A stretch of DNA of 64,000 nt from Acidimicrobiia bacterium (GTDB lineage: Bacteria; Actinomycetota; Acidimicrobiia; Spongiisociales; ZC4RG35), in the NCBI GenBank assembly GCA_036525795.1, contig DATCZS010000123.1, forward strand, positions 10,717 through 74,716, written 5' to 3'. The translations under genes were made by a program, and so were the position numbers. The notes below the pieces were generated by a model that was given only the letters and a program-made list of their open reading frames with translations, was not told where the DNA came from and did not search any database. Shown one piece after another: positions 27,514 to 47,548 of the stretch. How positions within the stretch are numbered: the stretch's first letter is position 1; each line of letters opens with the position of its first letter.

Positions 27514-28446
27514 TCACTCCAGGCCGGAGATCCGCTCGACGAGAAGCCGGGCGAACCGCTCCGAATCCACCGTCATCCCGACAGCCACGTTGGGCGGGCG
27601 TCCGGTGACGCGGAAGCGATCGACGAGCGTGCGGCCGGCGGAGGGCCCGTCGGTGGTGTCGATCTCGACCGCCAACGGCTCGGTCGAGACCAGGTCCGGC
27701 CAGATGACGTGGGCCACGGCCAGGGCGTCGTGGATCGGGGCGCCGTCGAATCCCATCCGCCTGCGGTAGTTCGGGAGGAAGTAGTCGAGGAGTTCGGCCA
27801 CGAAGCGCCCGCACCGACCGGTCTGGCGCAGGGCGTCTGCGTGCGCCGACCCCAGCCGGGCGTGATGGGTCACGTCGAGCCCGATCATGGTGACCGCGAT
27901 CGGGGAGCCGAACACCACCGCCGCCGCCTCGGGGTCCACGAAGATGTTGAACTCGGCCGCCGGGGTGATGTTGCCGAGTCCGATGGCTCCCCCCATCAGG
28001 ACGATCCGCTCGATGCGGTCCATCACCTCCGGGTGCCCGGTCAGCAGCCGGGCGATGTTGGTGAGAGGACCGACAGGGATCAACGTCACGGGGGTCTCGG
28101 CCGCCTCCAACAGCTCGGCGAGGAAGGGAACGGCGCCGTGCGCGTGCGTTGGTGTGGATGGGTCCGAGATGTGGGGGCCGTCGAGCCCGGTGGTCCCGTG
28201 CACGTGTTCGGCGGTGACCAGCGGCCGCCGCAGGGGCTGCTCGGAGCCGGCCGCGACCGGTACGTCCGACCGCCCGGCGAGTTCGAGGGTCGCCAGGGCG
28301 TTGCGCGTGGTCTTGTCGAGCGTCGTGTTGCCCGCCACCGTGGTCACCCCGAGCAGCTCGACCTCGGGGCTGGCCACCGCCAGCAGGAGGGCGATGGCGT
28401 CGTCGTGCCCCGGGTCGCAATCGATGATGATCGGCATCCGACTCAC
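27514..28446 (-). CDS. Nucleoside hydrolase (IunH/RihA-like)
   Basis: DCDPGHDDA N-terminal motif; 310 aa. Confidence 0.85.
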   Translation of the reverse strand: MSRMPIIIDCDPGHDDAIALLLAVASPEVELLGVTTVAGNTTLDKTTRNALATLELAGRSDVPVAAGSEQPLRRPLVTAEHVHGTTGLDGPHISDPSTPTHAHGAVPFLAELLEAAETPVTLIPVGPLTNIARLLTGHPEVMDRIERIVLMGGAIGLGNITPAAEFNIFVDPEAAAVVFGSPIAVTMIGLDVTHHARLGSAHADALRQTGRCGRFVAELLDYFLPNYRRRMGFDGAPIHDALAVAHVIWPDLVSTEPLAVEIDTTDGPSAGRTLVDRFRVTGRPPNVAVGMTVDSERFARLLVERISGLE

Positions 28447-29285
28447 AGCAGGTCCTCCACGGCGGCGAGCGTAGGCAGCGACGGCTGCGCCCCGTGGACC
28501 GTGGCGGCCAGGGCGCCGGCCACAACCGACCGCCTCAGCGACTCGGCTTCGTCGAATCCCGCCGCCAGCGAGGCGACCATGGCGCCGACGAAGGTGTCAC
28601 CGGCGCCCGTCGTGTCGACGACTTCCACCCTGGGGGGTCGGGCAGATGCGATCTGCCGACCGCCCCGGTACAGCTCGGCACCGTCCGCACCCCGGGTCAG
28701 CGCCACCATCCCGCCGGCACGATGGATGCGCGGACCGAGCTGGGAGGCCTCCACCTCGTTGACCACGAGCAGGTCGACGCGCTCGAGCACCGCGTCGGGG
28801 ATCGGCCGAACCGGAGCAGCATTCAGACAGAACATCCCCGTGCACGCAGTCGCTGCCGCCTCGACGACCTCGACGGGGATCTCCAACTGGCAGACGACGT
28901 AGCCGGCGCCGGCCACCTCGACGTGCGCCGGCAGCAGGGCCCGGTTGGCGCCGGGGGCCACGACGATCTGGTTCTCGCCGTCGTCCGCCACCACGATGAG
29001 GGCGACACCGGTGCCAGCCGATTCGTCCACCCCCACCCCGGCGAGGTCGACCGTGCTCTGACGCAGCAGTCGGAGTGCCAGGTCGGCGTTCGGGTCGGCA
29101 CCGACCCGACCCACCAGCGAGACATCGGCTCCCATCCTGGCCGCAGCCAGCGCCTGGTTGGCACCCTTTCCCCCCGGATGCTCGGAGAGCACCGCATCTG
29201 TGACGGTCTCGCCCGGACCGGGGAGCCGAGAGGCGCGGGCGACGATGTCGAGATTGATGCTGCCGACCACCGTCACCCGGTCCAT
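28443..29285 (-). CDS. rbsK: Ribokinase
   Basis: PfkB family motifs (GGKGANQA and the C-terminal DTTGAGDTF). Translationally coupled to the nucleoside hydrolase. Confidence 0.8.
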   Translation of the reverse strand: MDRVTVVGSINLDIVARASRLPGPGETVTDAVLSEHPGGKGANQALAAARMGADVSLVGRVGADPNADLALRLLRQSTVDLAGVGVDESAGTGVALIVVADDGENQIVVAPGANRALLPAHVEVAGAGYVVCQLEIPVEVVEAAATACTGMFCLNAAPVRPIPDAVLERVDLLVVNEVEASQLGPRIHRAGGMVALTRGADGAELYRGGRQIASARPPRVEVVDTTGAGDTFVGAMVASLAAGFDEAESLRRSVVAGALAATVHGAQPSLPTLAAVEDLL

Positions 29286-30265: not shown

Positions 30266-32584
30266 TCAGAGCGCCATCCCCGCCTCCCGCAGCGCCCGCC
30301 ACACCCGCTCGGCGGTGAAGGGGGTCTCGGTCAGCCACACTCCGGTTGCGTCGTGGACGGCGTTGGCGATGGTGGGAATCGGGGCGTTGATGCCGATCTC
30401 GGAAATCGACTTCGCCCCCATCGGGCCGGTCGGCTCGAACGACTCGACGAGGACCACCCGCAGCGGGGGCATGTCGACGGTGCTGGGGATCTTGTACCGG
30501 GCGAAATCGGGCGTTCGGCACCGGCCGCTGTCGGTGAACACCATCTCCTCCATCAGGGCATAGCCGATCCCGTTGGCGATCGCCCCTTCCACCTGACCCT
30601 CGGCCAGGCGGGGGTTCACCGCCGTCCCGCAGTCGACCGCCGCCACGAAGTCGGCGATCTCCAGCCTGCCGGTGCGCAGGTCCACCCCCACCTCGGCGAA
30701 GCTCGCCAGGAACGGCGGCGGCGACAGTTCGGGCAGGAACGACGCCATCGCCCCGATCTGGCGCTGGTCCTCGCCGTACAGGCTGCGCAGCGCCACCTCC
30801 GAGAGGGTGACGCTCTCCCCCTCGGGGATCCCCACCCGCTCGTCGACCAGCTCGAGGTCTGCGGGATCGGCCTCCAGCATCGCCGCGGCCGCCTCCCTGA
30901 TCTGGACGGCGACCTGGCGCGCCGCCCGCTCGACCGCCATCCCCGAGACGTAGGTCGTCGACGAGGCGTATGCCCCGGTGTCGAACGGCGTCAGGTCGGT
31001 GTCGGATGACAGCACCACGATCTTCTCCAGCGGCACCCCCAGGACCTCGGCGGCGATCTGGGCCAGGATCGTGTCCGAACCGGTCCCGAGATCGGTGGCA
31101 CCGACCGCAAGGTTGAAGGAGCCGTCGTCGTTCATCTTGAGGTTCGCCGACCCCATGTCGATCATCGGGATCCCCGACCCCTGCATGTGGATCGACATCC
31201 CGACCCCGTACACGACGTCGCCCTCCCGCCGCCTGCTCCCCCGCTTCGCCGACCAGCCGATGTGATCGGCCCCGACGCGGATGCACTCGTCGAGAACGCA
31301 GGAGGTGATGGTCTGATCGACGCCTTCCCGTCCTTCCCCGAGCGCCCGGAACATGGGCGAGGTCTCGCCGCTGCGCACGTGGTTGATCCGCCGCAGCTCC
31401 AGGGCGTCCATCCCGATCGCTTCGGCCAGGCGGTCGATCGCCGTCTCGAGCGGGAAGTACCCCTGGGTGGCCCCGTACCCGCGATAAGCGCCGCCCACCG
31501 GGAGGTTGGTGTACACGGCCTCGCCCCAGAACCGGACGTGGGCCGCCTTGTTGTACAGGGGGAGCGTCTTCGAACCGACGTTGGACAGAACGGTCAGGGC
31601 GTGGGTGCCGTAGGCGCCGGTGTTGGACAGCACGTCCATGCCGATGGCGTTGATCTTCCCGTCGCGCGTGGCTCCGAGCCGGACCCTGATCCGCATGGGA
31701 TGGCGCGTCCGCGACGACACGAACTCCTCTTCCCGGTCGAACTCGAGCACGGCGGGACGTCCCGTGCGATGGGTCACCATCGCCACCAGGTCCTCGATGA
31801 GGATCTCCTGTTTCACTCCGAAGCCCCCGCCGATGCGCGGCTTCACGACCCGAATCCGGTGGACCGGGACCTCGAGAAGGCCGGCGACGATCCGCCTCAC
31901 GTGGAAGGGAACCTGGGTCGACGACACGATGACGAGCCGCTCCTCGGTGTCGAGGTAGCTCGTGGCCACGTGGGTCTCGAGCGGAGCGTGCTGGCCGTAG
32001 TGGGTCTCGCAGGTGACGTCCACCACCGCGTCCGCCTCGGCCAGGCCGGTTTCGATGTCTCCCGAAGTGGCCACCACGTGTGACGCACAGTTCCGCTCGG
32101 CGGCCCACACGTCCAATGCGTCGGTCTCGTCGTGGATCACCGGGGCGCCGTCGGCGACGGCCTGGTCGATGGACAGCACCGGCTCGAGCATCTCGTACTC
32201 GACTTCGATCGCCTGACAGGCTTCGCGTGCCGTCTCCGGCGAGTCGGCGGCCACCGCCGCCACCCGGTCGCCTACGAAGCGCACCTTGGTGTCGAACATG
32301 CGGGCGTCATAAGGAGACGGCTCGGGATACCCCTGTCCGGCGGTGGTGTATCGCCTGGAGGGAGTGTTCATGTGCGTGAGCACCAGGGCCACACCCTGCA
32401 TCTCCTCGGCCGCCGACACGTCGATCGACCTGATGCGGGCGTGGGCGTGGGGGCTCCTCAGCAGCGCAACGTGGAGGAGGCCCTGGCGTTCGGTCATGTC
32501 TGCGACGAACACCGGCCGGCCGGTGGCCAGTGCCCGGCCGTCCACCCGGCGCTCGCTCTGGCCGACGACCGCGTACTTCCCCAT
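30266..32584 (-). CDS. Xanthine dehydrogenase-family molybdopterin-binding large subunit (set 1)
   Basis: GGGFGVK and AYRGYGATQ motifs. 772 aa starting MGKYAVVGQ, whose ATG overlaps the stop of the 2Fe-2S subunit gene. Confidence 0.85.
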   Translation of the reverse strand: MGKYAVVGQSERRVDGRALATGRPVFVADMTERQGLLHVALLRSPHAHARIRSIDVSAAEEMQGVALVLTHMNTPSRRYTTAGQGYPEPSPYDARMFDTKVRFVGDRVAAVAADSPETAREACQAIEVEYEMLEPVLSIDQAVADGAPVIHDETDALDVWAAERNCASHVVATSGDIETGLAEADAVVDVTCETHYGQHAPLETHVATSYLDTEERLVIVSSTQVPFHVRRIVAGLLEVPVHRIRVVKPRIGGGFGVKQEILIEDLVAMVTHRTGRPAVLEFDREEEFVSSRTRHPMRIRVRLGATRDGKINAIGMDVLSNTGAYGTHALTVLSNVGSKTLPLYNKAAHVRFWGEAVYTNLPVGGAYRGYGATQGYFPLETAIDRLAEAIGMDALELRRINHVRSGETSPMFRALGEGREGVDQTITSCVLDECIRVGADHIGWSAKRGSRRREGDVVYGVGMSIHMQGSGIPMIDMGSANLKMNDDGSFNLAVGATDLGTGSDTILAQIAAEVLGVPLEKIVVLSSDTDLTPFDTGAYASSTTYVSGMAVERAARQVAVQIREAAAAMLEADPADLELVDERVGIPEGESVTLSEVALRSLYGEDQRQIGAMASFLPELSPPPFLASFAEVGVDLRTGRLEIADFVAAVDCGTAVNPRLAEGQVEGAIANGIGYALMEEMVFTDSGRCRTPDFARYKIPSTVDMPPLRVVLVESFEPTGPMGAKSISEIGINAPIPTIANAVHDATGVWLTETPFTAERVWRALREAGMAL

Positions 32585-33054
32585 CAGGCCCCACCCCCTT
32601 CGATGCGTTCGGCGGCGAGAAGGACGCCCTCGACGATCTTGACGTAGCCGGTGCAGCGGCACAGGTTCCCGGCCAGAGCCTCTCGCACCTCGCGTTCGGT
32701 TGGATGTGGAACGCGATCGAGCAGCTCGGCCGCCGTCAGGATGATCCCGGGGGTGCAGAACCCGCATTGGATCCCGCCGGTGTCGAGCAGCGCCGACTGC
32801 AGCGGATGCAGCCCTTCGTCGCCCGCCAGTGATTCGACCGTCGTCACCCGGCGACCATCGACCTGGGCGGCGAACAGCAAACACGAGGTCACGGCCCGGC
32901 CGTCGACCAGCACCGCACACGTCCCGCAGTCGCCGTGGGCACACCCGTTCTTGACCCCGGCGAAGCCGCGCTCGCGCAACATCTCCATGAGCGTGGCACC
33001 CGGATGCACCTCGGCCTCGATGGCCAGTCCGTTGACCGTCAGCGAGATCCTCAT
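32584..33054 (-). CDS. Xanthine dehydrogenase-family (2Fe-2S)-binding small subunit (set 1)
   Basis: Plant-type ferredoxin Cys cluster CAHGDCGTC plus QCGFCTPG and CRCTGY. Confidence 0.88.
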   Translation of the reverse strand: MRISLTVNGLAIEAEVHPGATLMEMLRERGFAGVKNGCAHGDCGTCAVLVDGRAVTSCLLFAAQVDGRRVTTVESLAGDEGLHPLQSALLDTGGIQCGFCTPGIILTAAELLDRVPHPTEREVREALAGNLCRCTGYVKIVEGVLLAAERIEGGGA

Positions 33055-33896
33055 GCGCCACCTCCCAGCCGGTCCCTTGCCACCCTCAGGCACCGGTCGA
33101 CGAGGGTGACCGCCAGATGCGATCGGTATTCGGCCGAGGCGGTCCAGCTGGAATGGGTGGGGAGGTCGCCCGCCAGCCTGGCGGCATCCGCAATCGCCTC
33201 GTCGTCGAGGGTCGATCCGACCAGCCTGCCGGCGGCCTCGGCCAGCACCCGGGCGACACCGGGGCCGGCCCCGACGGCGAGCCTCGCCTCGTCGACGATG
33301 CCGTCGACGGCCCGCACGCGACAGGCCGTGTTGGCGAGGGCGTGGTCGAAACCCGAGCGCGAGAACCGCAGAAATGCGGCCACCTCCTCCGCCGGCGGAG
33401 GGAGGAACACGGCGGTGACGACGTGAAGCGTGTCGTGCACCGAGTCGTGGTAGTAGGAGTCGAGCGGCAGCCGGCGGGTCTGCCCGTCGAAGACCTCGAT
33501 CTCGGCATCGAGGGCCAGCAGGACGGGAACCACATCCGACAGGTACCCCCGGGCGAGATGACCGCCGATGGTTGCGGCGTTGCGCAACAGCGGCGATCCG
33601 ACCTGCACGAGCATCTCGGGGATCACCCCCGAGGCCATCCGGCGGAGCTCGGGGTGCTCGAGCATTCCGGTGAGCGTCGCCATCGCCCCGATCCGGATCG
33701 TTCCGTCGCTCTCGACGTCGATCCCCTCGATACCCAGATGCGACAGGTCCACCAGCACTCGCACCTCGGCCGGACAGTGGATCGTCAGGTCGGTGCCCCC
33801 TCCCACGAGCCTCACCTGAGGGCCTTCCTGCAGGAGATGCCACACCTGCATGATCCGGTCCGGGCGGTGGAAGGCGCGGATCTGACTCACCGGCAT
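33051..33896 (-). CDS. Xanthine dehydrogenase-family FAD-binding subunit (set 1)
   Basis: CoxM/XdhB-like FAD-binding domain (LVGGGTDL, AATIGG), 281 aa. Confidence 0.8.
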   Translation of the reverse strand: MPVSQIRAFHRPDRIMQVWHLLQEGPQVRLVGGGTDLTIHCPAEVRVLVDLSHLGIEGIDVESDGTIRIGAMATLTGMLEHPELRRMASGVIPEMLVQVGSPLLRNAATIGGHLARGYLSDVVPVLLALDAEIEVFDGQTRRLPLDSYYHDSVHDTLHVVTAVFLPPPAEEVAAFLRFSRSGFDHALANTACRVRAVDGIVDEARLAVGAGPGVARVLAEAAGRLVGSTLDDEAIADAARLAGDLPTHSSWTASAEYRSHLAVTLVDRCLRVARDRLGGGA

Positions 33897-33899
33897 CGT

Positions 33900-35387
33900 T
33901 CATCCTCCTCGCACACGCCGATTGAACTCGCCGATCAGATGGTCGATCTCGTCGACCTGACCCTGCACGGTGGTCCAGTAGTCGGGGTCGTGCCACTGGG
34001 CGTCGAGCTCGGCCGTCTCGCGCCCCTGCTGCTCGATCCACGTGAAGTACTTGAGATCGTGGATGCGTCTGCGGTCCCAGTGATCGAGCTCCCGCATGTG
34101 ATCCGTGCTCAGACCCATCACCCAACGACCATATGCCACCTCGGCATCGGTGGCGGTGAATTCCCCGCGGTCGGCGTTCATCTCGGCGAGCCTGCTCCGG
34201 TACATGTCGATGGAATCCGTCGCCATCGTCAGGACCACGTCGGTCGGGCCGAGCTCGAACCACCGTGCGAACTTGATGGCGCCGATCAGGTTGGCCACCG
34301 ACGAGATCCCCAGCTCGGGCAGCCGGGCGATCACCTCGTCGCCGACACCGTGACTCGCGAGGCACTCGACGCCGGCAGGCTCGTTGAACAGCCGGACCAG
34401 CGACATCGGACCTTCGTCGTCGATGGCGATCACGACGTCGGTGTTCTTGACGTTGTGGATCCAGGGCACGTGCTTGTCGCCGATGCCCTCGATCCGATGG
34501 TCGCCGTGTCCCGAATAGAGGAGGGTCGGACACTGGAGGGCCTCACCGGCGGCGATCAGCGATCCCGGCCAGCGTTGCTTGAGCCGGTCACCCGATCCGA
34601 TCGTGCCGGCCGAACCGGTCGTCAGCACCACCCCCCGGTAGCGGTCACCGGGGCGCATCGCCTCCTCGACCACCTCGATCATGGCGCTCCCCGTGACCTC
34701 GTAGTGCCACAGGTAGTTCCCCAGTTCGTCGAACTGGTTGAAGATCACGACGTCCTCCCCGGAGACCCGCATCCGGTTGCACTCGTCGAAGATCTCCTTC
34801 ACGTTGGACTCGGTGCCCGGGGTGGTCACGATCTCTCCCGCCACCGACTCGAGCCAGTCGAATCGCTCCCGGCTCATGCCTTCGGGAAGAATCGCGACGG
34901 ACTCGCACGCCAGCAGATTCGCGTCGTACGCCCCGCCCCGGCAGTAGTTGCCGGTCGACGGCCACACCGACTTCTGACTCGTCGGATCGAACTGCCCCGT
35001 CACGAGCCGGGGAACCAGACAGCCGAAGGCGGCGCCCACCTTGTGGGCGCCCGTGGGGAACCACTTGCCGACCAGGGTGATGATCCTCGCATCCACCCCG
35101 GTGAGAGAGGGGGGAAACTCGATGGTGTTGACCGGCCCGAACGCGCCGCCGGTGGCGACCGGCTCGTTGTGCCAGTTGATGCGGAACAGGTTGAGCGGAT
35201 CCAGATCCCACAAGCCCAGTCCACCCAGCCTCCCGGTCACCTCTGGCGGAATCGACGCGGGGTCGCGCATCTGCTCGAACGTCGGGACCACGATGTCGCG
35301 TTCGCCTGCCCGCCGGACGGCACGGTCGAGTGCGTCGGGTCTGATCGTCAGGTCGATCCCCCGGTTCCATCGGGCGGCGGCGGTCAT
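33900..35387 (-). CDS. PLP-dependent fold-type II enzyme (Trp-synthase-beta-like, GAHK lysine motif), specificity unknown
   Basis: 495 aa. PTGAHKVGAAF resembles the TrpB HTGAHK PLP-lysine region, and a Gly-rich GSAGTIGSG loop is present. Its ATG overlaps the stop of the upstream threonine-synthase-like gene. Confidence 0.6.
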   Translation of the reverse strand: MTAAARWNRGIDLTIRPDALDRAVRRAGERDIVVPTFEQMRDPASIPPEVTGRLGGLGLWDLDPLNLFRINWHNEPVATGGAFGPVNTIEFPPSLTGVDARIITLVGKWFPTGAHKVGAAFGCLVPRLVTGQFDPTSQKSVWPSTGNYCRGGAYDANLLACESVAILPEGMSRERFDWLESVAGEIVTTPGTESNVKEIFDECNRMRVSGEDVVIFNQFDELGNYLWHYEVTGSAMIEVVEEAMRPGDRYRGVVLTTGSAGTIGSGDRLKQRWPGSLIAAGEALQCPTLLYSGHGDHRIEGIGDKHVPWIHNVKNTDVVIAIDDEGPMSLVRLFNEPAGVECLASHGVGDEVIARLPELGISSVANLIGAIKFARWFELGPTDVVLTMATDSIDMYRSRLAEMNADRGEFTATDAEVAYGRWVMGLSTDHMRELDHWDRRRIHDLKYFTWIEQQGRETAELDAQWHDPDYWTTVQGQVDEIDHLIGEFNRRVRGG

Positions 35388-36655
35388 GGGTGTCCTCCTG
35401 TCGTCGTTCCGAACACCGCCTCCACCGCGTCGAGGCGGGGACTCACGTGGTGGGCGACGTCTCCGGCGGCCTCCACTGCCCGGATCGCGGCGGGAACGTC
35501 CTTGAGTCCGGTGCCGGTGCTGACCAGCACGATGCGGTCGCGATTCAACACGAGCCCCATTGCGGCCGCCCGCACCAGCCCGGCGTATGCCGCCGCCGCG
35601 GCCGGCTCGGCGAACACCCCCGAGGCCCTGGCCAGGAGCGGGATGGAGGCAAGGATCTCCTCGTCGGTGACCGTGACGAACGCCCCGTCGGTGTCGTGCA
35701 CCGCCCGCATCGCCTTGAGCCGGTCCCTCGGCAGCCCGGCCGAGATCGAGTCGGCGACCGTGTGGGCGGCGATCGCCGGTTTGGTGAGGACGTCCTCTCC
35801 CCGGCGCCACGCCTCGGCGAGGAACGCCGAGCCCTCTGCCTGCACGCCGATCAGCCGGGGGACGTGGGTGATCCATCCCAGGGCGACGAGGTCGCGAAAG
35901 CCCTTGTGCAGGCCGCCGATGATGCACCCGTCCCCCACGGAGACGAAGACCACGTCGGGTGCCTGCCAGCCGAGTTGCTCGACGATCTCCACCGCCGCCG
36001 TCTTCTTGCCCTCCGACATGTACGGGTTGAAGCCGGTCGTGCGGTTGTACCACCCGAAGCGGTCCGCCGCCTGGAGGCACAGCTCCACCGCGTCGTCGTA
36101 CGAGCCGTCCACGAGCAGCACGGTCGAGCCGTATGCCAGCAGTTGCGCCACCTTGGCCTGGGGGGCGTCCGCCGGAACGAAGATCACGTTGGGTTGCTTC
36201 ACGGAGGCGCACACCCCGGCGAGGGCGGCTGCGGCGTTCCCGGTGGAAGCGGTCGTGACGACCGACGCGCCCCGTTCGGTGGCCTTCACCACCGCCACGG
36301 CACTCGCCCGGTCCTTGAGCGACCCCGTGGGCTGGACTCCCTCGTCCTTGACCCACACGTCCCGGAGACCGAGGCTCGCTGCGAGCCTCGGCGTCTCGTA
36401 CAGGGGAGTCCACCCGACCCTGAGCGGAGGCACCGCAGAGGCCTGTCCGATGGGCAGCAGAGCCCGGTACCGCCACATCGACTCGATCCCCGATTGCGCC
36501 ACTCCGCCGCGGCTGAAGCCTGACTCGATGCGGTCGTAGTCGTAGGCCACGTCGAGGGTCCCGTCTGCGCCGTGGTCGGGACACACGTAGTCCACTTCAT
36601 CTGCGGCGTAGCGCGATCCGCAGATCATGCAGTCGAGCCCCAGCACGTGGTTCAT
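35384..36655 (-). CDS. Threonine synthase-like PLP enzyme with an N-terminal Zn-ribbon
   Basis: CxxC...C N-terminus (CMICGSRYAADEVDYVCPDHG) and a SLKDR PLP-lysine motif. 423 aa after trimming to MNHVLG. Confidence 0.7.
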   Translation of the reverse strand: MNHVLGLDCMICGSRYAADEVDYVCPDHGADGTLDVAYDYDRIESGFSRGGVAQSGIESMWRYRALLPIGQASAVPPLRVGWTPLYETPRLAASLGLRDVWVKDEGVQPTGSLKDRASAVAVVKATERGASVVTTASTGNAAAALAGVCASVKQPNVIFVPADAPQAKVAQLLAYGSTVLLVDGSYDDAVELCLQAADRFGWYNRTTGFNPYMSEGKKTAAVEIVEQLGWQAPDVVFVSVGDGCIIGGLHKGFRDLVALGWITHVPRLIGVQAEGSAFLAEAWRRGEDVLTKPAIAAHTVADSISAGLPRDRLKAMRAVHDTDGAFVTVTDEEILASIPLLARASGVFAEPAAAAAYAGLVRAAAMGLVLNRDRIVLVSTGTGLKDVPAAIRAVEAAGDVAHHVSPRLDAVEAVFGTTTGGHP

Positions 36656-36674
36656 GCCGGCTCCTTCGCCCGTC

Positions 36675-37622
36675 TCATGGCGTGATCCGCGTCCCGGTGT
36701 GGCCGGCCAGGGCTCTGTCGATCTGATCGGGACTGGTGATGATGGCCTGAGACCCCCCGCCTTCCAGGAAGTCGACGACCGCCTCGATCTTGGGGGCCAT
36801 GCTTCCCGGACGGAAGTGCCGCCCTTCCGCCAGGCGACGCTTCGCCTCGTCGAGGGTGAGGTGGTCGACCCACCGCTGATCGGGGGTCCCGAAGTCGAGC
36901 GCAACGCGTTCCACCGAGGTCGAGATCAACAGGAGGTCTGCGGCGATCTCCCTGGCGAGCAAGGCAGAGGCCCGGTCTTTGTCGATCACGGCCGGAACTC
37001 CCCGCAGGTTGCCTGCCCCGTCGGACACGACCGGAATGCCGCCGCCCCCACAGGCGATCACCACGAACCCGCCGTCGAGAAGGAACCGGATCGCCTCGAT
37101 CTCCACGATTCTCATCGGCAGCGGAGATGCGACCACGCGCCGCCATCCCCGCCCCGCGTCCTCCACCACCTCCCAGCCGTCCATCCGGGCCCTCGTCTCG
37201 GCCTCTTGGGCCGTCAGGAACGAGCCGATCGGCTTGGACGGCAGACGGAAGGCCGGATCGTCCGGGTCGACCTCCACCTGGGTGACGACGGTGACGGCCT
37301 CCTTGGCGATGCCAAGACGCCGAAAGTCACCGACCAGGTTCTGCTGAAGCAGATAGCCGATCGCCCCTTGTGTGTCCGCCCCGCACACGTCGAGCGGCAC
37401 CTCGTGCAGCTCGTTGCGCGCCAGTTCCGAGCGGCGCAGGATGAATCCGATCTGGGGCCCGTTGCCGTGGGTGATCACCACCTCACATCCGTGGGCAACG
37501 AGATTGGCGATGTGATGATCCGTCTCGGCCGCGGCCAGGTACTGGTCCTCGACCGTCTGGTGCTCCGGATCGGTGATGAGGCTGTTGCCTCCGATCGCCA
37601 CCACCACCCGCTGATGTTCCAT
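36675..37622 (-). CDS. arcC: Carbamate kinase
   Basis: MEHQRVVVAIGGN N-terminus and an amino-acid-kinase fold of 315 aa with GGGGIPVV. Confidence 0.85.
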   Translation of the reverse strand: MEHQRVVVAIGGNSLITDPEHQTVEDQYLAAAETDHHIANLVAHGCEVVITHGNGPQIGFILRRSELARNELHEVPLDVCGADTQGAIGYLLQQNLVGDFRRLGIAKEAVTVVTQVEVDPDDPAFRLPSKPIGSFLTAQEAETRARMDGWEVVEDAGRGWRRVVASPLPMRIVEIEAIRFLLDGGFVVIACGGGGIPVVSDGAGNLRGVPAVIDKDRASALLAREIAADLLLISTSVERVALDFGTPDQRWVDHLTLDEAKRRLAEGRHFRPGSMAPKIEAVVDFLEGGGSQAIITSPDQIDRALAGHTGTRITP

Positions 37623-37681
37623 CTCCTCGCTCGCTCCCTCCTCTTCTCCGACACCCGACACCGCCCGCCTCCGGAGCGGGC

Positions 37682-38656
37682 TCACATGGTGAGGGCCATC
37701 ACGGCCTTCTGGACGTGGAGGCGGTTCTCCGCCTGGTCGTAGACGGCGCTCTGCGGGCCGTCGATCACGGTGTCGGTCACCTCGATGTTGCGGTCGGCGG
37801 GCAGCGGGTGCATGTAGATCGCGCCCGGGTCGGCCAGCGCCATCCGCTCCGTGTCGGTGATCCAGTCCTGGTATCTCGCACCGATCGCGGCGGACTCGGC
37901 CTCGTCGGCGGTGGCGAGCATCGCTCCCCACGACTTGGCGTAGACGACGTCTGCGCCCCGCATCCCCGCTGCGAAGTCCTCCACGACCTCGAACCCCCCT
38001 CCTGCCCGTTTGGCGTTCTCGGCCGCCTGATCCATGACGTCGTCCATGAGCGCGAACTCGGGAGGCCGGGTGAGGCGCACATCCATTCCGAACCGCGTGG
38101 CGAGGAGGATCAGGCTCTGCGGCACCGAGAGCGGCTTCTGGTAGCTGGAGGCGTACGCATAGCTGACGTCCAGCGTCACCCGGCGGGGATCCCCCTTCTT
38201 CTCGATGATCGTCATCAGGTCGGCCAGCGCCTGGAACGGATGGAACCAATCGCACTGCATGTTGAGGACCGGGACGCGCGACGCCGCCGCCACGTCCCGG
38301 ATGTACCCGTTTCCCACCCCCCAGTCGACCTGTCGTATGGCGATGCCGTCGTTGTAACGGCCGAGGATCTCTCCGATCTCCTTGGCGGTGTCGCCATGAG
38401 CGATCTGGGTCGTCTTCGACTCGATGAACTGGGCGTGACCGCCCAGCTGTGCCATGCCCGCCTCGAAGCTGGCCCTCGTCCGCGTCGACGAGAAGAAGAA
38501 CAGCATTGCGAGCACCTTGTCACGAAGGATCGGGTGGGCCTCGCCGAGAGCCCTCCGGCGCTTGAGATCGAATGCCACCTCCAGAACCGAGTCGAGCTCG
38601 TCCTTGGTCCACTCCTGGGTGGTGATCATGTCGCGCCCGCGCAAGCCGGTCTGCAT
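37682..38656 (-). CDS. YgeW-type carbamoyltransferase (unknown-substrate branch of the OTC/ATC superfamily)
   Basis: STRTR, HPFQ and HPLP motifs. Extended identity to E. coli YgeW segments from memory (SYQKPLSVPQ...TRFGMDV, VVYAKSWG, YMHPLPAD). Confidence 0.75.
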   Translation of the reverse strand: MQTGLRGRDMITTQEWTKDELDSVLEVAFDLKRRRALGEAHPILRDKVLAMLFFFSSTRTRASFEAGMAQLGGHAQFIESKTTQIAHGDTAKEIGEILGRYNDGIAIRQVDWGVGNGYIRDVAAASRVPVLNMQCDWFHPFQALADLMTIIEKKGDPRRVTLDVSYAYASSYQKPLSVPQSLILLATRFGMDVRLTRPPEFALMDDVMDQAAENAKRAGGGFEVVEDFAAGMRGADVVYAKSWGAMLATADEAESAAIGARYQDWITDTERMALADPGAIYMHPLPADRNIEVTDTVIDGPQSAVYDQAENRLHVQKAVMALTM

Positions 38657-38664: not shown

Positions 38665-39621
38665 TCACTCCATCGCGCCCATGATCAGGGCGAGGAGGCC
38701 CATTCGCATGACGACCCCGTAGTACGCCTCCTGCCAGTAGCGGGCGTGCCGGGTGGCATCGACGTCCGGGGGAAGCTCGTCCATCCGCGGGAGCGAATGG
38801 AGGATGATCGAGTGGCTCTGGGCCTTCTCGGAGAGGAGTGCCCGCGTGACCCGATAGTTGTCCGGGGTGTTCCCCACCGAGCCGTCGCCGCGTTCTTCGC
38901 GGCTCGCCGTGTAATCGGCCTGGACGACCGGCTCCATGTAGATGACGTCGGCTTCTCCGATGGCATCGGCCACGTGCTCGGCCCGCTCGATCCGCACGTT
39001 GAGGGCGTCCATCTCGGCCAGGAACTCCTCGGTCGGCCCCATGTCGTCGGGACACACATAGATGATCTTCGAGTCGAACTGGCTCATCGCGTAGCCGAGA
39101 GAATGCATCGTGCGCATGCGCCAGTCGCCGACCGCCAGGAAGGTGAGCCCGTCGACCGTGCCCAGTTCCCGGCGTGTCGTGTACAGGTCGGTGAGCACCT
39201 GGGTGGGATGCTCTCCCCACCCGTCCCCTCCGTTGATCACGGGAACACTCGACCAGCGGGCGGCTTCGTGAGGCGCTCCCTGCTGGAAATGGCGCATCAC
39301 GATCGCATCCCCGTAGAACTCGAGCATGTGGACGGTGTCCTTGATCGACTCCTGGTAGAAGTCGCCTGCCCTGGTCATCTTCGGGTCGGCGAACCCGCAC
39401 ACGTGCCCGCCCAGCCGGTGCATCGCCGCCTCGTGGGCAAGGCGGGTCCGGGTGGATGGCTGATAGAAGGCGGTGACCAGCGTCTTCTCGGCGAGCAGAT
39501 CCGTGTTCCGCCGTTCCCGCGCGATCGGCTCGAGCTCGTCGCACGCCTCGAAGACGTGTTCGAACTCGGCCCGCTCGAAGCCGTTCAGCGACAGGATGTC
39601 CCGCCCGGCGAAGCTCCTCAT
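38665..39621 (-). CDS. Aspartate-carbamoyltransferase-like (PyrB-like) carbamoyltransferase
   Basis: STRTR, HPTQ and HSLPR motifs; 318 aa. It sits in a catabolic gene context rather than a pyr operon. Confidence 0.7.
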   Translation of the reverse strand: MRSFAGRDILSLNGFERAEFEHVFEACDELEPIARERRNTDLLAEKTLVTAFYQPSTRTRLAHEAAMHRLGGHVCGFADPKMTRAGDFYQESIKDTVHMLEFYGDAIVMRHFQQGAPHEAARWSSVPVINGGDGWGEHPTQVLTDLYTTRRELGTVDGLTFLAVGDWRMRTMHSLGYAMSQFDSKIIYVCPDDMGPTEEFLAEMDALNVRIERAEHVADAIGEADVIYMEPVVQADYTASREERGDGSVGNTPDNYRVTRALLSEKAQSHSIILHSLPRMDELPPDVDATRHARYWQEAYYGVVMRMGLLALIMGAME

Positions 39622-39766: not shown

Positions 39767-40615
39767 GTGACGCTTGACCCCGCAACCGGGGACCTGTTGG
39801 GAGTAGGTTCCCTTGCGATGGACATCGCCAGACCGAGGGGCCTCGACGAGGCCCTGGCCGCCCTCGCCGCCTCTCCCTCAGCGACGTTGCTGGCGGGAGG
39901 AACCGACCTGATGGTCGACGTCAACCTCGCGCACCGCCGCCCTGAAGAGGTGATCGCACTCCGCAGGGTGCCCGAACTGGCCGAGATGGCCCCTGCGTTC
40001 ATCGGGGCGGGGGTCACGTTTGCCCGCCTGGAGGGCTCGCCCCATGCCGCCCTCGCCGAACTCGCCCGCACGGTCGGGTCGCCGCAGATCCGGGCGGCGG
40101 GCACCATCGGGGGGAACCTGGGCACGGCCAGCCCGGCCGGCGACTCGCTGCCCTGGCTGGCGGCGCTCGACGCCACCGTCGTGCTCGCCTCGGTCGACGG
40201 TGAGCGCCGGGCGAGATGGGACGAGTTCTTCGTCGGCCCCAAGCGGACGGCGAGGCGCCCCGGCGAGTTGATCGTCGGCGTCGAACTGCCGGATCGCCGC
40301 CCCGTGCGCGAGGCGTTTGCGAAGGTCGGGATACGCCAGGCGATGGTCATCGCCACCGTGTCGTGCTGTGTGGCCCGATTCGACGACGGCGAGATCCGGG
40401 TGGCGCTCGGAGCCGTCGGACCCACCGTGCTCCGTGCCCGGCGGGCAGAGGCCTTCCTCGCCGACCGGGCCATCACATCAGACGAGGACCTCGCCGCCTT
40501 CGCCCGAATGGTCGCAGACGAAGTCCGGCCGATCACAGACCACCGATCGACGGAGGCCTACCGCCGCCACGCGGCAGGGGTGATCGCCCGGCGAACACTG
40601 GAGCGAGTGATGTGA
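39767..40615 (+). CDS. Xanthine dehydrogenase-family FAD-binding subunit (set 2)
   Basis: LLAGGTDL and GTIGGNL motifs. The true start may be the internal Met. Confidence 0.8.
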   Translation: MTLDPATGDLLGVGSLAMDIARPRGLDEALAALAASPSATLLAGGTDLMVDVNLAHRRPEEVIALRRVPELAEMAPAFIGAGVTFARLEGSPHAALAELARTVGSPQIRAAGTIGGNLGTASPAGDSLPWLAALDATVVLASVDGERRARWDEFFVGPKRTARRPGELIVGVELPDRRPVREAFAKVGIRQAMVIATVSCCVARFDDGEIRVALGAVGPTVLRARRAEAFLADRAITSDEDLAAFARMVADEVRPITDHRSTEAYRRHAAGVIARRTLERVM

Positions 40616-41082
40616 TCATCGAACTCACCGTCAACGGGGAACGGAGGTCCGTCCAGGTGGACGGCTGGGAGAGCCTCCTGTGGGTGCTGCGTGAGCAGCT
40701 CGGTCTGCCCGGATCCAAGCCTGCCTGCGAGCAGGGTGAGTGCGGAGCCTGCTCGGTGATCCTGGACGGCGACCTGGTGTGCAGCTGTCTCGTGATGGCC
40801 GCGGACGCCGAAGCCGGCACGGTCGTCACCGTGGAAGGCCTCGGGACCGCAGAGGACCTGCATCCGGTGCAGGCGGCGTTTCACGCCCACGGCGCGGTGC
40901 AGTGCGGGTTCTGCACGCCCGGGCTGGTCGTCGCCGCCGCCCACCTGCTCGAGCATGCCAGGAACCCTTCGATGGAGGACATCCGCGAGGCGCTGTCAGG
41001 CAACATCTGTCGATGCACCGGGTACGGCTCGGTGCTCAGGGCGGTCGCCTCGGTCGTCGCCGACCGGGAGGAGACGCCGTGA
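40612..41082 (+). CDS. Xanthine dehydrogenase-family (2Fe-2S)-binding subunit (set 2)
   Basis: GTG start overlapping the upstream stop (GTGA). Motifs CEQGECGAC, QCGFCTPG and CRCTGY. Confidence 0.85.
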   Translation: MIIELTVNGERRSVQVDGWESLLWVLREQLGLPGSKPACEQGECGACSVILDGDLVCSCLVMAADAEAGTVVTVEGLGTAEDLHPVQAAFHAHGAVQCGFCTPGLVVAAAHLLEHARNPSMEDIREALSGNICRCTGYGSVLRAVASVVADREETP

Positions 41083-43304
41083 CCACGTCGGTCGGCGAGC
41101 GGCGAAAGGTGTCCGGCGGGGTCGGCGAGCCGGTGCTCCGACCAGATGGCATCCCCAAGGTCACCGGGGCCTTCGAGTATGTGAACGACCTCCATGCGGA
41201 CGGGATGCTGTGGGCCGTGACGCGTCGGGCACACGCCGCTCACGCCCGCATCGTCCGCCTCGACACCACTGCGGCGAGGACCATGCCGGGGGTTGTCGAC
41301 GTCATCACCGTCGACGACGTGGCCGGTCACCGCTATCAGGGCCAGATCGTCACCGACCAGCCCGTGCTCGCCGAAGCCGAGATCCGCCATTGGGGTGAGG
41401 CGGTGGCGGTGGTGGCCGCCGAGACACGGGAACAGGCGCGGCGGGCCGCCGAGGCGATAGATCTCGAACTCGAGGCCCTGCCCGCCGTCACCGACCTCGA
41501 GGCCGCGCTCGAGCAGGGGGCGATCTTCCGGGCGATCACGGTCCGTCACGGCGACCAGGACCGCCACGGCGAGGTGGTGGTGGAAGGACGCTACGAGGTG
41601 GGGATCCAGGACCAGGCCCCGCTGGGGACCGAGGCGGGGCTGGCCGTTCCGGACGGCGTCGGTGGTGTCGACGTCTGGGGTCCCACCCAGTGGACACACG
41701 TCGACCGCCGTCAACTCGCGGCCTGTCTCGGCCTCGACGAGTCGGCGGTCCGCGTCCACTCGGTGGGCCTGGGCGGAGCGTTTGGCGCCCGCGAGGATCT
41801 CTCGGTCCAGACCCACCTGGCCATGCTCGCCCTCCGCACGGGACGTCCGGTCAAGATGGCGTTCGACCGCACCGAGAGCTTCGCCGCCCACGTCAAGCGA
41901 CACGGAGCGGTGATGGAGTACCGCCACGAGGCAGACGCCGACGGGACGCTGGTGCGGGTCGACGCCCGGCTGCTGCTCGATTCGGGGGCCTACCACATGA
42001 CCTCCGACGCCGTGATCGCCAACTCCGCCTACTTCGCGGTCGGCCCCTACCGCTGTGAGACCACCTCCGTCGACGCCTGGGCACTGCGCACCAACCATCC
42101 ACCCGCTGGAGCCATGCGCGGGTTCGGGGCCAACCAGCCGTGCTTCGCGGCCGAGGCCCAGATGGACCGCCTTGCAGCCGCCCTCGGAATGGATCCGGTC
42201 GAACTGCGCCTGCGCAACGCCTTGGGCCGTGGAGACACCCTCCCGACCACCGGCCAGCTCATCGAATACCCGCTCCCCACCGCCGAGGTGATCCGCTCGG
42301 TGGCCGCCATCCCGCTACCCGACCCCGAGGACCGGAGCGACGTACGCCTCCTCCCTGGAGGCACGGGCCGGACCACCGGCCGCGGCCACGTCCGGCGCGG
42401 CGTGGGCTACGCCGTCGGCATCAAGAACCTCGAGTTCTCGGAGGGTTTCGACGACTTCGCCGAGGCCGAAGTCGAGCTCACCGCCGCAGGGGCGGTGATC
42501 CACACCGCCGCCATCGAGGTCGGTCAGGGCCTGGTGACCGCCCTCACCCAGATCGCCCGGTCGGCGCTTGGCATCGAGTCGGTGACCGTGGACTTCGACC
42601 ACACGGGCCGGATCGGGTCGGCCGGATCGACGTCGGCATCCCGTCAAACCCAGATGAGCGGCGGTGCCGTGCTGCGGGCGGCGCAGGCGGTGCGGGCGGC
42701 CGTCCTCGACCGCCACGGCGCCGACGACCTCACAGACGAAGGCGTGTGGCGGAACGGGGAGCTGGTGGCATCGCTCGCCGCCGTCGTCGGCGACGGTCCG
42801 GTCGCCGAGCGAGTGCGGTTCAGGCACCCCGGGACCGATACCCCAGACGAGTTCGGACAGGGCAAGCTCCACGTCGACTTCTGCGTTGCGGCCCACAGGG
42901 CGATCGTCGACGTCGACCCCGAGCTCGGGCTGGTGCGGGTGGTACGAATCGACACCGCCCAGGACGTCGGCCGGGCGCTCAACCCCCTCTCCGTGCTCGG
43001 CCAGATCGAAGGCGGCATCGCCCAGGGCATGGGCCTGGCCATCATGGAGGAGCTGGTCGTCGACGGCGGCATCGTCCGCAACCCCACGTTCACCGACTAC
43101 CTGCTGCCCACCACCCTCGACATGCCAGACGTCGAGGCGGTGCTGGTCGAGGAACCCAGCCCCTGGGGGCCGTTCGGGGCCAAGGGTTTCGCCGAGCTCC
43201 CGACCGTCTCATCGACGCCGGCGGTGGTGGCGGCGCTGCGGGCCGCCACGGGCATGGCGCTGAACCGGGTGCCGGTTCGACCCCAGGACATCGTCGGTCT
43301 CTGA
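41079..43304 (+). CDS. Xanthine dehydrogenase-family molybdopterin-binding subunit (set 2)
   Basis: GTG start overlapping the upstream stop. GGAFGARE and AMRGFGANQ motifs; about 741 aa. Confidence 0.82.
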   Translation: MTTSVGERRKVSGGVGEPVLRPDGIPKVTGAFEYVNDLHADGMLWAVTRRAHAAHARIVRLDTTAARTMPGVVDVITVDDVAGHRYQGQIVTDQPVLAEAEIRHWGEAVAVVAAETREQARRAAEAIDLELEALPAVTDLEAALEQGAIFRAITVRHGDQDRHGEVVVEGRYEVGIQDQAPLGTEAGLAVPDGVGGVDVWGPTQWTHVDRRQLAACLGLDESAVRVHSVGLGGAFGAREDLSVQTHLAMLALRTGRPVKMAFDRTESFAAHVKRHGAVMEYRHEADADGTLVRVDARLLLDSGAYHMTSDAVIANSAYFAVGPYRCETTSVDAWALRTNHPPAGAMRGFGANQPCFAAEAQMDRLAAALGMDPVELRLRNALGRGDTLPTTGQLIEYPLPTAEVIRSVAAIPLPDPEDRSDVRLLPGGTGRTTGRGHVRRGVGYAVGIKNLEFSEGFDDFAEAEVELTAAGAVIHTAAIEVGQGLVTALTQIARSALGIESVTVDFDHTGRIGSAGSTSASRQTQMSGGAVLRAAQAVRAAVLDRHGADDLTDEGVWRNGELVASLAAVVGDGPVAERVRFRHPGTDTPDEFGQGKLHVDFCVAAHRAIVDVDPELGLVRVVRIDTAQDVGRALNPLSVLGQIEGGIAQGMGLAIMEELVVDGGIVRNPTFTDYLLPTTLDMPDVEAVLVEEPSPWGPFGAKGFAELPTVSSTPAVVAALRAATGMALNRVPVRPQDIVGL

Positions 43305-43319: not shown

Positions 43320-44528
43320 TTGGATTTCTCGATCACGCCCGAACTGCACGAGACGCTGCGCGCGGTCCGCGAGTTCATCGACAGAGAGGTGATCCCCCTC
43401 GAGGCCCGGCTCCTGACCGAGGGGTTCGAGGCGACGGCGGGGGACCTGGGGCATCTGAGGGAGCGGGCGAAGACCCTGGGACTGTGGGCCCCTGCCATCC
43501 CCCGCGAGGCGGGCGGAGCCGGACTGGGGCTGATCGACTTCGCCCATCTCAGTGAAGAACTGGGGCGGACGCCGGCCGGCCACTACGTGTTCAACGCCCA
43601 GGCGCCCGACATCGGCAACATGGAGCTGCTGCTGCGCCACGGGTCCGATGCGCAGCGTCGCCGATGGCTCGAGCCCCTCGTGGCCGGCGAGATCCGGAGC
43701 TGTTTCTCGATGACCGAGCCGGGGCGGGCCGGGTCGAACCCCGCCTGGCTCTCTGCCACCGCCGAACGGGACGGCGACCAGTACGTGCTCAACGGCGACA
43801 AGTGGTTCACCTCGGCCGCCGACGGGGCCGCCTTCACCATCGCCATGATGGTCACGAACCCCCAGGCGGAGAGCCGCTACGCCCGCGCCAGCCAGATCAT
43901 CGTCCCCACCGACACTCCCGGGTTCACCCGCGTTCGCAACACCCCGGTGATGGGCGAGGCGGGTTCTGGTTGGGCCAGCCACTCCGAGGTGAGCTTCACC
44001 GACTGTCGGGTCCCGGTCACCAACCGGATCGGCGATGAGGGCGCCGGATTCGTCCTCGCCCAGGAGCGCCTGGGCCCGGGTCGCATCCACCACTGCATGC
44101 GATGGCTGGGCATCTGCGAACGGTCGCTCGACCTGATGTGCGAGTACGCGGTCAATCGGGAGCTGGCGCCGGGCCGGCCACTGGCGGATCAGCAGGTGGT
44201 GCAGCACTGGATCGCCGACAGCCGGACCGAGATCGACGCCGCCCGGCTCATGGTGCTGCGTGCCGCATGGAAGATCGAGCGGGAAGGCAACCACGCCGCC
44301 CGCACCGAGGTCTCGCAGATCAAGTTCTTCGTGGCCAACACGCTCCAGCGGGTGATCGACCGGGCGCTCCAGGTGCACGGCGGCATGGGGATGACCGACT
44401 ACACGCCGCTGGCGTGGTGGTACCGGCACGAACGGGCCGCCCGGATCTACGACGGCGCCGACGAGGTCCACCGCAACGTCGTCGCCCGTCACGAGCTCGG
44501 CAGGCACGGGTACGGGCGGAAGAGCTGA
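43320..44528 (+). CDS. Acyl-CoA dehydrogenase family protein
   Basis: ACAD fold of 402 aa with C-terminal YDGADEVHR. Confidence 0.75.
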   Translation: MDFSITPELHETLRAVREFIDREVIPLEARLLTEGFEATAGDLGHLRERAKTLGLWAPAIPREAGGAGLGLIDFAHLSEELGRTPAGHYVFNAQAPDIGNMELLLRHGSDAQRRRWLEPLVAGEIRSCFSMTEPGRAGSNPAWLSATAERDGDQYVLNGDKWFTSAADGAAFTIAMMVTNPQAESRYARASQIIVPTDTPGFTRVRNTPVMGEAGSGWASHSEVSFTDCRVPVTNRIGDEGAGFVLAQERLGPGRIHHCMRWLGICERSLDLMCEYAVNRELAPGRPLADQQVVQHWIADSRTEIDAARLMVLRAAWKIEREGNHAARTEVSQIKFFVANTLQRVIDRALQVHGGMGMTDYTPLAWWYRHERAARIYDGADEVHRNVVARHELGRHGYGRKS

Positions 44529-46866: not shown

Positions 46867-46968
46867 GGAGCCACGGTATGGCCCGGCTGTCCGGGCGGGG
46901 AGGGACCGACGGCCCTTCCGGCCGAAGCCCTCGTGCGAGACAGGGTCGACCGGGGACGGCGGGCGCAG

Positions 46969-47451: not shown

Positions 47452-47548
47452 GGCCCAAACGTAGTCCCTGCCGGTACCCGGCCATGGGTCATGGGTCCCT
47501 GGTCATCTGACCACCGGCCCTGCCGCGTGTGCGGGACTGCGCATAGGG

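Follow-up and report, generated by a model that had tools for sequence, protein, structure and literature searches.

Organization of the locus

The DNA analysed here, referred to below as the window, is a stretch of 64,000 nucleotides (positions 10,717 to 74,716 of contig DATCZS010000123.1, assembly GCA_036525795.1) from a metagenome-assembled genome (MAG) of an uncultured Acidimicrobiia bacterium, in which the whole contig measures 118,706 bp. On its minus strand lie two neighboring genes for fold-type II pyridoxal 5'-phosphate (PLP) enzymes, a threonine synthase-like (ThrC-like) protein of 423 amino acids (35384..36655; HEY5685702.1) and P495, a protein of 495 amino acids that resembles CysK and CBS (33900..35387; HEY5685701.1), and this pair is considered here as a candidate replacement for YgeX, the last enzyme of the reductive uric acid pathway. 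The two proteins carry the public labels 'threonine synthase' and 'pyridoxal-phosphate dependent enzyme', respectively. The ThrC-like gene runs from an ATG at 36655 to a TGA stop at 35386..35384 and P495 from an ATG at 35387 to a stop at 33902..33900, and the stop of the former and the start of the latter share an ATGA, read directly as cccATGAccg. This translational coupling had been noted in a first-pass annotation of the DNA. Gene calls on at least eight independently assembled contigs revealed an identical arrangement of 423, 495, 281, and 156 amino acids with the same 4-nt overlap, and thus the arrangement is not an assembly artefact.

The G+C content of the window is about 69%, and long spurious open reading frames (ORFs) are therefore plentiful. 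Third-position GC periodicity, together with a list of ORFs filtered by third-position G+C, placed the genuine genes across 30266-39621 on the minus strand throughout. The first gene of the operon encodes a carbamoyltransferase resembling aspartate carbamoyltransferase (ATCase-like; 38665..39621, minus strand), followed by one resembling ornithine carbamoyltransferase (OTCase-like; 37682..38656, minus strand), which among the window genes is the closest to E. coli YgeW, and by a carbamate kinase homologous to YqeA (36675..37622, minus strand), whose gene ends 19 nt before the ThrC-like gene begins. Downstream of P495, after a spacer of 3 nt (and not 4 nt, as annotated before), are the genes of a three-subunit, XdhD-type molybdenum hydroxylase of the xanthine dehydrogenase (XDH) type, all on the minus strand: the FAD-binding subunit (33051..33896), the 2Fe-2S subunit (32584..33054), and the molybdopterin subunit (30266..32584), the last two each overlapping the gene before. 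The best E. coli match of the molybdopterin subunit is XdhD (E 9e-173), and it is presumed to be the urate to 2,8-dioxopurine reductase. The coordinates thus confirm that the pair sits between carbamate kinase and an XDH-type hydroxylase.

Relation of the cluster to the reductive uric acid pathway

The reductive uric acid (2,8-dioxopurine) pathway was established in 2025 in gut bacteria (PMC12507026; bioRxiv 10.1101/2025.04.24.650524). In E. coli and clostridia, XdhD, with YgfM, reduces urate to 2,8-dioxopurine (PMC12507026; bioRxiv 10.1101/2025.04.24.650524; commentary PMC12990295), YgfK and SsnA carry this to ureidomethyl-hydantoin, HyuA forms 2,3-diureidopropionate, YgeW (by phosphorolysis, coupled to the carbamate kinase YqeA) and YgeY take off the two ureido groups, and YgeX converts 2,3-diaminopropionate to pyruvate and ammonia (PMC12507026; bioRxiv 10.1101/2025.04.24.650524). 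The order of ureido cleavage is still disputed and the intermediates have been proposed to be D-configured (PMC12990295), and YgeX is unusual in that it accepts both isomers (PMC12507026). The gut version of the pathway uses selenium-dependent hydroxylases (bioRxiv 10.1101/2025.04.24.650524).

The first-pass annotation had not placed the cluster in this published pathway (PMC12507026; bioRxiv 10.1101/2025.04.24.650524). A tblastn search of the window with the E. coli K-12 cluster proteins revealed matches to XdhD (41% identity), YgfK (40%), SsnA (32%), YgeW (35%), and YqeA (49%), and none to HyuA or YgeY. No YgeX orthologue was found in the window, where the only match was weak and partial (26% identity over 174 amino acids) and fell on the ThrC-like gene.

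The ThrC-like protein has lost the phosphate pocket of threonine synthases

The ThrC-like protein matched the Pfam PALP family with 256.7 bits and contains the lysine motif PTGSLKDRA, in which the PLP lysine K114 (SLKDR) is invariant across 52 orthologues, as well as the S-T-G-N loop. Its N-terminus carries a Zn-ribbon-like site (C9/C12/C25/H28), of which C9, C12, and C25 are kept in the orthologues together with H, D, or C at position 28. The best sequence matches among solved structures were the ThrC proteins of Bacillus, Aquifex, Mycobacterium, and Thermus (E 1e-50 to 1e-57), and the AlphaFold2 model (pLDDT 86) had these same proteins as its nearest structures (34-38% identity), far ahead of threonine deaminases, serine racemase, serine dehydratase, and YgeX. 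Among the NCBIfam threonine synthase models, NF006050 was passed marginally (306.4 bits, cutoff 303) and TIGR00260 with 192.8 bits (cutoff 167.1). Against the YgeX model NF006058 the protein scored 68 bits, with a cutoff of 276, and BLASTP against E. coli YgeX gave 26% identity over 196 amino acids.

In an alignment of five solved ThrC structures, residues T88, N154, S155, R160, and N188 (Thermus numbering) were invariant; we take these residues of Thermus thermophilus ThrC to be the binding site for the phosphate of O-phosphohomoserine. All five are replaced in the ThrC-like protein, where the equivalent residues are A141, T207, G208, M213, and D242. The same positions were inspected in the 52 orthologues, whose genes adjoin P495 genes: A141 and D242 were invariant, T207 was present in 50 of 52, position 208 was G or A, and position 213 was M or T in 50, V in one, and L in one, with Arg never occurring. 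None of the orthologues restored any of the five residues, and two new invariant residues, R205 and K217, appeared in the family. The anion pocket has thus turned neutral to acidic, which on the residues present suits an amine or a ureido substituent better than a phosphate and makes the use of O-phosphohomoserine as substrate very unlikely. A second subtype of the protein, 47-52% identical to the window copy, occurs in Anaerolineae-type loci and has T213 and N244. Homologues of thrA/hom and thrB were absent both from the window and from the 80 P495-seeded loci described below, and the first-pass suggestion that the gene might be the housekeeping thrC can be set aside on the grounds of active-site residues and gene context.

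P495 belongs to a large family with a CysK-like core

P495 passed the Pfam PALP model weakly (41.5 bits). Its lysine motif is FPTGAHKVG, with the PLP lysine K116 lying 28 residues ahead of the Asn loop, as does K42 in CysK, and it further contains the motifs STGNYCRG, GSAGT, HRIEGIG, and GISS. The NCBIfam matches (E <= 1e-3) were limited to the CysK, CysM, CBS, and SbnA families, at 27-74 bits versus cutoffs of 344-510; for the CysK-type models the scores were 74 bits for TIGR01139 (cutoff 351) and 32 bits for NF008735 (cutoff 413). The best sequence matches in the PDB were cysteine synthases (E ~1e-13). The AlphaFold2 model (pLDDT 83, predicted TM-score 0.88) was compared with solved structures by Foldseek, and the top 50 neighbors were all beta-replacement or beta-elimination enzymes of the CysK/CBS type, with target-normalised TM-scores of about 0.8 at 18-26% identity; they include Fn1055, CysK, CBS, beta-cyanoalanine synthase, and the O-ureidoserine synthase DcsD (3x43/3x44). 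In accordance with this, hhalign of P495 with E. coli CysK gave a probability of 97% and paired STGN with TSGN, Q218 with Q142, HRIEGIG with HKIQGIG, and GISS with GISS. As judged from sequence and model, P495 therefore appears to keep the CysK-type catalytic apparatus, and the PLP and alpha-carboxylate motifs are intact in both proteins of the pair.

The core of P495 is flanked by N-terminal and C-terminal helical extensions of about 95 amino acids each, which together add about 190 residues. The motif GN(H/Y)xRG is common to P495 and YgeX, and in the remaining comparisons the YgeX model NF006058 did not match P495 and BLASTP against E. coli YgeX returned a single stretch of 44 amino acids. 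More than 8000 clusters at 90% identity were scored as P495 family; members from different phyla are 62-85% identical, and P495 is the most conserved of the cluster proteins.

Two other assignments of P495 were discarded. It had been annotated as TrpB-like, but TrpB appeared neither among the NCBIfam matches nor among the top 50 Foldseek neighbors, and the 'TGAHK' likeness to TrpB is local only. An OrtB-type (2-amino-4-oxopentanoate) thiolase, considered as a further lead, was dropped in view of the same restricted set of NCBIfam families.

Conservation of the pair across phyla and absence of ygeX

A scan of species-representative genomes with P495 yielded at least 589 relatives, and the 80 best loci among them were retained. 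These loci, without exception from MAGs, represent at least six phyla, with members of the Acidimicrobiia, Chloroflexota, Desulfobacterota, Myxococcota, Terriglobia, Halanaerobiales, Spirochaetaceae, and Burkholderiaceae. Homologues of the E. coli proteins were counted in these loci at a query coverage of at least 50% and within flanks of 10 kb. The counts were 32 for ygeW, 31 for yqeA, 20 for hyuA, 18 for ssnA, 17 for xdhD, 11 for ygeY, and 7 for ygfK, and ygeX was found within 10 kb of P495 in none of the 80 loci. The proximity of P495 to an XDH gene is therefore not peculiar to this genome, and the co-occurrence with YgeW-type genes that the first-pass annotation had proposed to look for is borne out.

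Searches by tblastn with the window proteins revealed that the block of ATCase-like, OTCase-like, carbamate kinase, ThrC-like, and P495 genes recurs across loci. The ThrC-like gene was present in 54 of the 80 loci, upstream of P495 on the same strand in 52 of these 54. When the count was restricted to the 42 loci flanked by 5 kb or more on either side, 31 contained the ThrC-like gene, 33 contained at least one pathway gene, and eight contained neither; three loci (L014, L069, and L078) kept a pathway gene and lacked the ThrC-like gene. No alternative conserved context was found for the eight P495 loci that have neither.

Several loci retain the E. coli-like enzymes at high identity and carry the ThrC-like and P495 genes without ygeX: L021 from Terriglobia (YgeW 68%, YgeY 53% identity), L040 (YgeY 69%), L064 (XdhD 58%), and L076 (SsnA 51%, YgfK 44%). 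In L021, L040, and L064, the pair stands where ygeX would be in an otherwise E. coli-like cluster, and this constitutes an in-place swap. Among loci seeded with the ThrC-like protein, L084 repeats the cluster of the window with HyuA added, and L086 is a compact operon of GntR, YgeY, OTCase-like, carbamate kinase, ThrC-like, and P495 genes. A mirror-tree comparison gave r = 0.49-0.51 (p = 0.001) for P495 and ThrC-like distances, which is barely above the value for P495 and carbamate kinase (r = 0.43), so that this test does not discriminate.

The neighborhood of the pair also varies. The locus L085 has the same operon as L086 with P495 not nearby, and a BrnT/CopG-like toxin-antitoxin pair (L085:9453-9993) is inserted between its carbamate kinase and ThrC-like genes. 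In Anaerolineae-type loci (L018, L030, L033, L034, L042, L051, L056, L065, L072, and others), a family-2 glycosyltransferase gene separates P495 from the ThrC-like gene (22 loci), a 192-amino-acid ORF without Pfam match follows P495 (19 loci), and a BMP/PnrA-type ATP-binding cassette transporter lies between the carbamate kinase and ThrC-like genes.

Ureido-cleaving enzymes associated with the pair

Two ureido-cleaving enzymes accompany the pair in the loci inspected by eye where the flank permits judgement. In the P495-seeded loci, the second of them is rarely lacking and is either the ATCase-like carbamoyltransferase (18 loci with this gene only) or YgeY (10 loci with this gene only), with both present in one locus, and the two are thus almost mutually exclusive. 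The presence of two such enzymes means that the PLP pair should receive free 2,3-diaminopropionate, and, as far as gene content tells, these clusters encode no other enzyme that could use it up. By homology, the ATCase-like enzyme probably cleaves off the second ureido group phosphorolytically, and two carbamoyl phosphates per urate would result. That an ATCase-like enzyme takes the place of YgeY hints that the substrate of YgeY may be an N-alpha-carbamoyl acid, and this bears on the disputed order of cleavage.

HyuA was not found within 10 kb in the Acidimicrobiia loci L001, L008, L019, L023, and L027. In the close relative L084 it lies about 9 kb upstream (L084:328-1713; 42% identical to E. 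coli HyuA), and the corresponding gene of the window's genome may be located elsewhere on the 118.7-kb contig.

Further purine catabolism genes of the window

The remaining pathway homologues lie on the plus strand. The SsnA-like amidohydrolase (48610..49635) is a short form of 341 amino acids, compared to 442 in E. coli; a form of about 340 amino acids is kept in all Acidimicrobiia loci and thus does not result from a frameshift. The YgfK-like reductase (49646..51454; 602 amino acids) aligned to residues 5-405 and 892-979 of E. coli YgfK and lacks the central module, and a long form of about 1180 amino acids occurs in L027. The missing centre presumably corresponds to the NAD(P)H/FAD module, which suggests that another electron donor may be used.

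A second, divergently transcribed XDH trimer (39767..43304, plus strand) consists of FAD (39767..40615), FeS (40612..41082), and pucD-like molybdopterin (41079..43304) subunits with GTGA start/stop overlaps, and presumably makes urate. Close behind it are an acyl-CoA-dehydrogenase-like gene (43320..44528, plus strand) and a 314-amino-acid ORF without family match (44533..45477, plus strand). Genes for nucleoside hydrolase, ribokinase, 8-oxoguanine deaminase (673 bits, above cutoff), and adenosine deaminase lie around the cluster (27514..29285, minus strand, and 45493..48607), as does a protein with the PF04008 'adenosine-specific kinase' domain. According to their annotations, the purine genes of the window would make up a full funnel that leads purine nucleosides into urate and beyond. 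About 5 kb past the YgfK-like gene there is a pyruvate/2-oxoacid:ferredoxin oxidoreductase alpha-type gene (56097..57971, plus strand), whose product could use the pyruvate of the pathway or be unrelated to it.

Proposed role of the pair

The conservation of the cluster across phyla, the absence of ygeX, the presence of two ureido-cleaving enzymes, and the lack of another diaminopropionate consumer together indicate that, in an environmental variant of the reductive uric acid pathway, the ThrC-like protein and P495 are probably the terminal PLP module that replaces YgeX and forms pyruvate and ammonia from 2,3-diaminopropionate. Comparative genomics thus supports the earlier proposal that the pair acts as a YgeX analogue on an amino-acid-like intermediate. 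Within the literature that could be searched, no purine route has been described that includes either enzyme.

In the proposed route, purines would be converted to urate by adenosine deaminase, 8-oxoguanine deaminase, nucleoside hydrolase, and the pucD-like XDH, and the XdhD-like trimer would reduce urate. The YgfK-like protein would then dearomatise the ring and the SsnA-like protein open it. The OTCase-like (YgeW-type) and ATCase-like carbamoyltransferases would remove both ureido groups of 2,3-diureidopropionate by phosphorolysis, and carbamate kinase would convert carbamoyl phosphate to ATP. Finally, the ThrC-like protein and P495 would jointly carry out the step from 2,3-diaminopropionate to pyruvate and ammonia that YgeX performs alone in E. 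coli. We infer diaminopropionate as substrate, pyruvate as product, and a division of labour between the two proteins from sequence comparison and gene content.

As a working guess, P495 would perform beta-elimination or beta-replacement on diaminopropionate, and the ThrC-like protein would take care of the other enantiomer, which it would racemise or convert in a D-specific reaction, or deaminate a serine-type product; this split is speculative. A role in handling the other enantiomer is suggested by the D-configuration proposed for the pathway intermediates. Four arrangements of two enzymes can be envisaged. The pair may comprise a racemase and a lyase, or two enantiomer-specific lyases, and a racemase with a D-lyase has a precedent in the case of cysteate (PMC11193023). 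It may instead form a relay, in which P495 would swap the beta-amine for water to give serine and the ThrC-like protein would deaminate the serine; P495 would then parallel its closest structural neighbor, Fn1055, which converts cysteine to serine. The two proteins could also constitute a heteromeric enzyme, or one of them could act on a mono-ureido acid, for which the ThrC-like pocket would be long enough to hold the ureido group. We tentatively consider it quite possible that the proteins represent two new PLP functions forming a novel route from a diamino or ureido C3 acid to pyruvate, as a racemase/lyase pair, a serine relay, or a heteromer.

Several points weigh against a replacement of YgeX by the pair. 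A single YgeX suffices in E. coli, and the need for two enzymes is not explained. The diaminopropionate lyase role is a prediction for both proteins, and both lack an Asp where YgeX has D120, the residue that we take to be the base for the D-isomer. The loss of the phosphate pocket in the ThrC-like protein presupposes that the five residues replaced there bind phosphate in Thermus thermophilus ThrC. The anti-correlation with ygeX covers the 10 kb around P495 in P495-seeded MAG fragments rather than whole genomes. In addition, P495 has no ThrC-like neighbor within 10 kb in 11 of the 42 fully flanked loci, and the Chloroflexota locus L085 has a ThrC-like gene without P495 within 10 kb; each gene being found alone, their adjacency is not obligatory and their roles may be separable. 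Furthermore, as HyuA is absent from the window, the annotated genes leave a gap on the way to the diureido acid.

The alternative that survives best, which we nevertheless regard as unlikely, is that the pair belongs to the pathway and acts on a mono-ureido intermediate, such as albizziin (2-amino-3-ureidopropionate) or a related compound, as a bypass or salvage branch instead of an equivalent of YgeX. For example, albizziin would lose urea or carbamate through the action of the ThrC-like protein, whose former phosphate pocket would accommodate the ureido group, and P495 would handle another species. The pocket itself, with R205 and D242 invariant, T207 nearly so, and no equivalent of Arg160, is sized beyond the beta-amine of diaminopropionate, and the presence of DcsD among the structural neighbors of P495 shows that CysK-type sites can hold ureido groups; the dispute over the order of ureido cleavage (PMC12990295) also leaves room for such an intermediate. 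However, the two ureido-cleaving enzymes that accompany the pair lead one to expect free diaminopropionate, for which these clusters offer no other consumer, ygeX is missing within 10 kb in all 80 loci, and elimination of urea would waste carbamoyl phosphate that the clusters otherwise conserve.

A non-catabolic, auxiliary use of the pair, which would draw on a pathway intermediate or on a common amino acid, for instance in serine or cysteine synthesis or in the supply of sulfur or selenium for maturation of the molybdenum hydroxylase, is distinctly improbable. It is suggested by the CysK/CBS-like nature of P495, its position immediately before the hydroxylase genes in the window, and the selenium-dependent hydroxylases of the gut pathway (bioRxiv 10.1101/2025.04.24.650524). 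In most loci, however, the pair follows carbamoyltransferase and carbamate kinase genes, many loci (e.g., L086 and the Anaerolineae loci) have no XDH genes nearby, and an auxiliary role leaves the constant absence of ygeX unexplained. Selenium-cofactor maturation in particular was rejected, given that homologues of yqeB and yqeC were not found in the window and that the pair tracks carbamoyltransferase genes and not hydroxylases.

Chance placement within a catabolic operon, with the ThrC-like gene as the housekeeping threonine synthase and P495 as an ordinary paralogue of cysteine synthase, would agree with the two NCBIfam cutoffs passed by the ThrC-like protein, its closest solved structures, and the public labels 'threonine synthase' and 'cysteine synthase', but it is hardly credible in view of the five phosphate-site residues that are replaced and never restored, the lack of thrA/hom and thrB in the window and the 80 loci, an adjacency kept over at least six phyla, and the distance of P495 from CysK both in score (74 bits against a cutoff of 351) and in length (about 190 extra residues).

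Significance

The pathway is already known and the cluster is therefore not a new kind of system; what appears to be new is the probable replacement of YgeX by two conserved PLP families. The searchable literature contained nothing relevant that links a threonine or cysteine synthase to ssnA, ygfK, ygeW, hyuA, or diaminopropionate, and no mention of an in-place replacement of YgeX by two PLP families. SsnA clusters have been noted in Chloroflexota and Actinomycetota, where 'YgeX' was scored as any PF00291 protein in the neighborhood (PMC12507026), and by this criterion the ThrC-like protein and P495 would silently count as YgeX. A 52-kDa PF00291 protein of Bilophila wadsworthia, E5Y7Z0, was set aside untested owing to its size (PMC11193023); it may belong to the P495 family and would then represent it in a cultured gut bacterium.

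The data describe a large environmental branch of the pathway without the known last enzyme, in which the two very conserved PLP families found in its place are a matter of testable enzymology, and two orphan enzyme families gain a defined candidate substrate. In both families, thousands of database entries bear the label 'threonine synthase' or 'cysteine synthase', and these labels are probably wrong for the two families. Double phosphorolysis seems to give up to two carbamoyl phosphates per urate, which is relevant to the question of energy conservation raised by the discoverers of the pathway and to the design of uricolytic probiotics. If the two proteins do have new PLP functions, the ThrC-like protein would be the first member of the threonine synthase family to act on an amine- or ureido-substituted substrate, and the novel route would occur widely among environmental Chloroflexota, Acidimicrobiia, Desulfobacterota, and Acidobacteriota.

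Comparison with known systems

The cluster resembles the uric acid cluster of E. coli and Clostridium (XdhD-YgfM, YgfK, SsnA, HyuA, YgeW, YqeA, YgeY, and YgeX) in five homologues, which are accompanied by purine-salvage and deaminase genes, and in its predicted logic, whereby a C3 diamino acid would be released and carbamoyl phosphate would yield ATP. It differs in that two unrelated fold-type II PLP enzymes take the position of YgeX, an ATCase-like carbamoyltransferase stands in the place of YgeY, and HyuA is absent within the 64 kb. In addition, the hydroxylase of the window comprises three separate subunits, SsnA falls short of the E. coli form by about 100 amino acids, YgfK is without its central module, and the host is an uncultured Acidimicrobiia bacterium and not a gut anaerobe.

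With YgeX/DpaL (EC 4.3.1.15), the pair shares the fold-type II PLP class, the position in the cluster, and presumably the substrate, and P495 additionally shares the GN(H/Y)xRG motif. Unlike YgeX, it consists of two proteins instead of one, without the Asp of the D120 position, and these proteins either fall below the NF006058 cutoff or do not match the model. The ThrC-like protein has the fold, PLP lysine motif, and S-T-G-N loop of threonine synthases (EC 4.2.3.1; PDB 1UIM, 6CGQ, 2ZSJ, 2D1F) and passes two of their NCBIfam cutoffs; it departs from the class I bacterial type in its extra N-terminal Zn-ribbon-like domain, its setting in a catabolic operon, and the lack of hom/thrB context. P495, in turn, corresponds to the CysK/CysM/CBS/Fn1055/DcsD/SbnA clade in core fold, PLP lysine, Asn loop, the equivalent of Q142, and the phosphate loop. 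It is nevertheless set apart by scores beneath every family cutoff, two extensions, the STGNYCRG form of the Asn loop, and a length of 495 amino acids compared to the typical 300-320 or so of CysK and CysM, and forms a separate large family.

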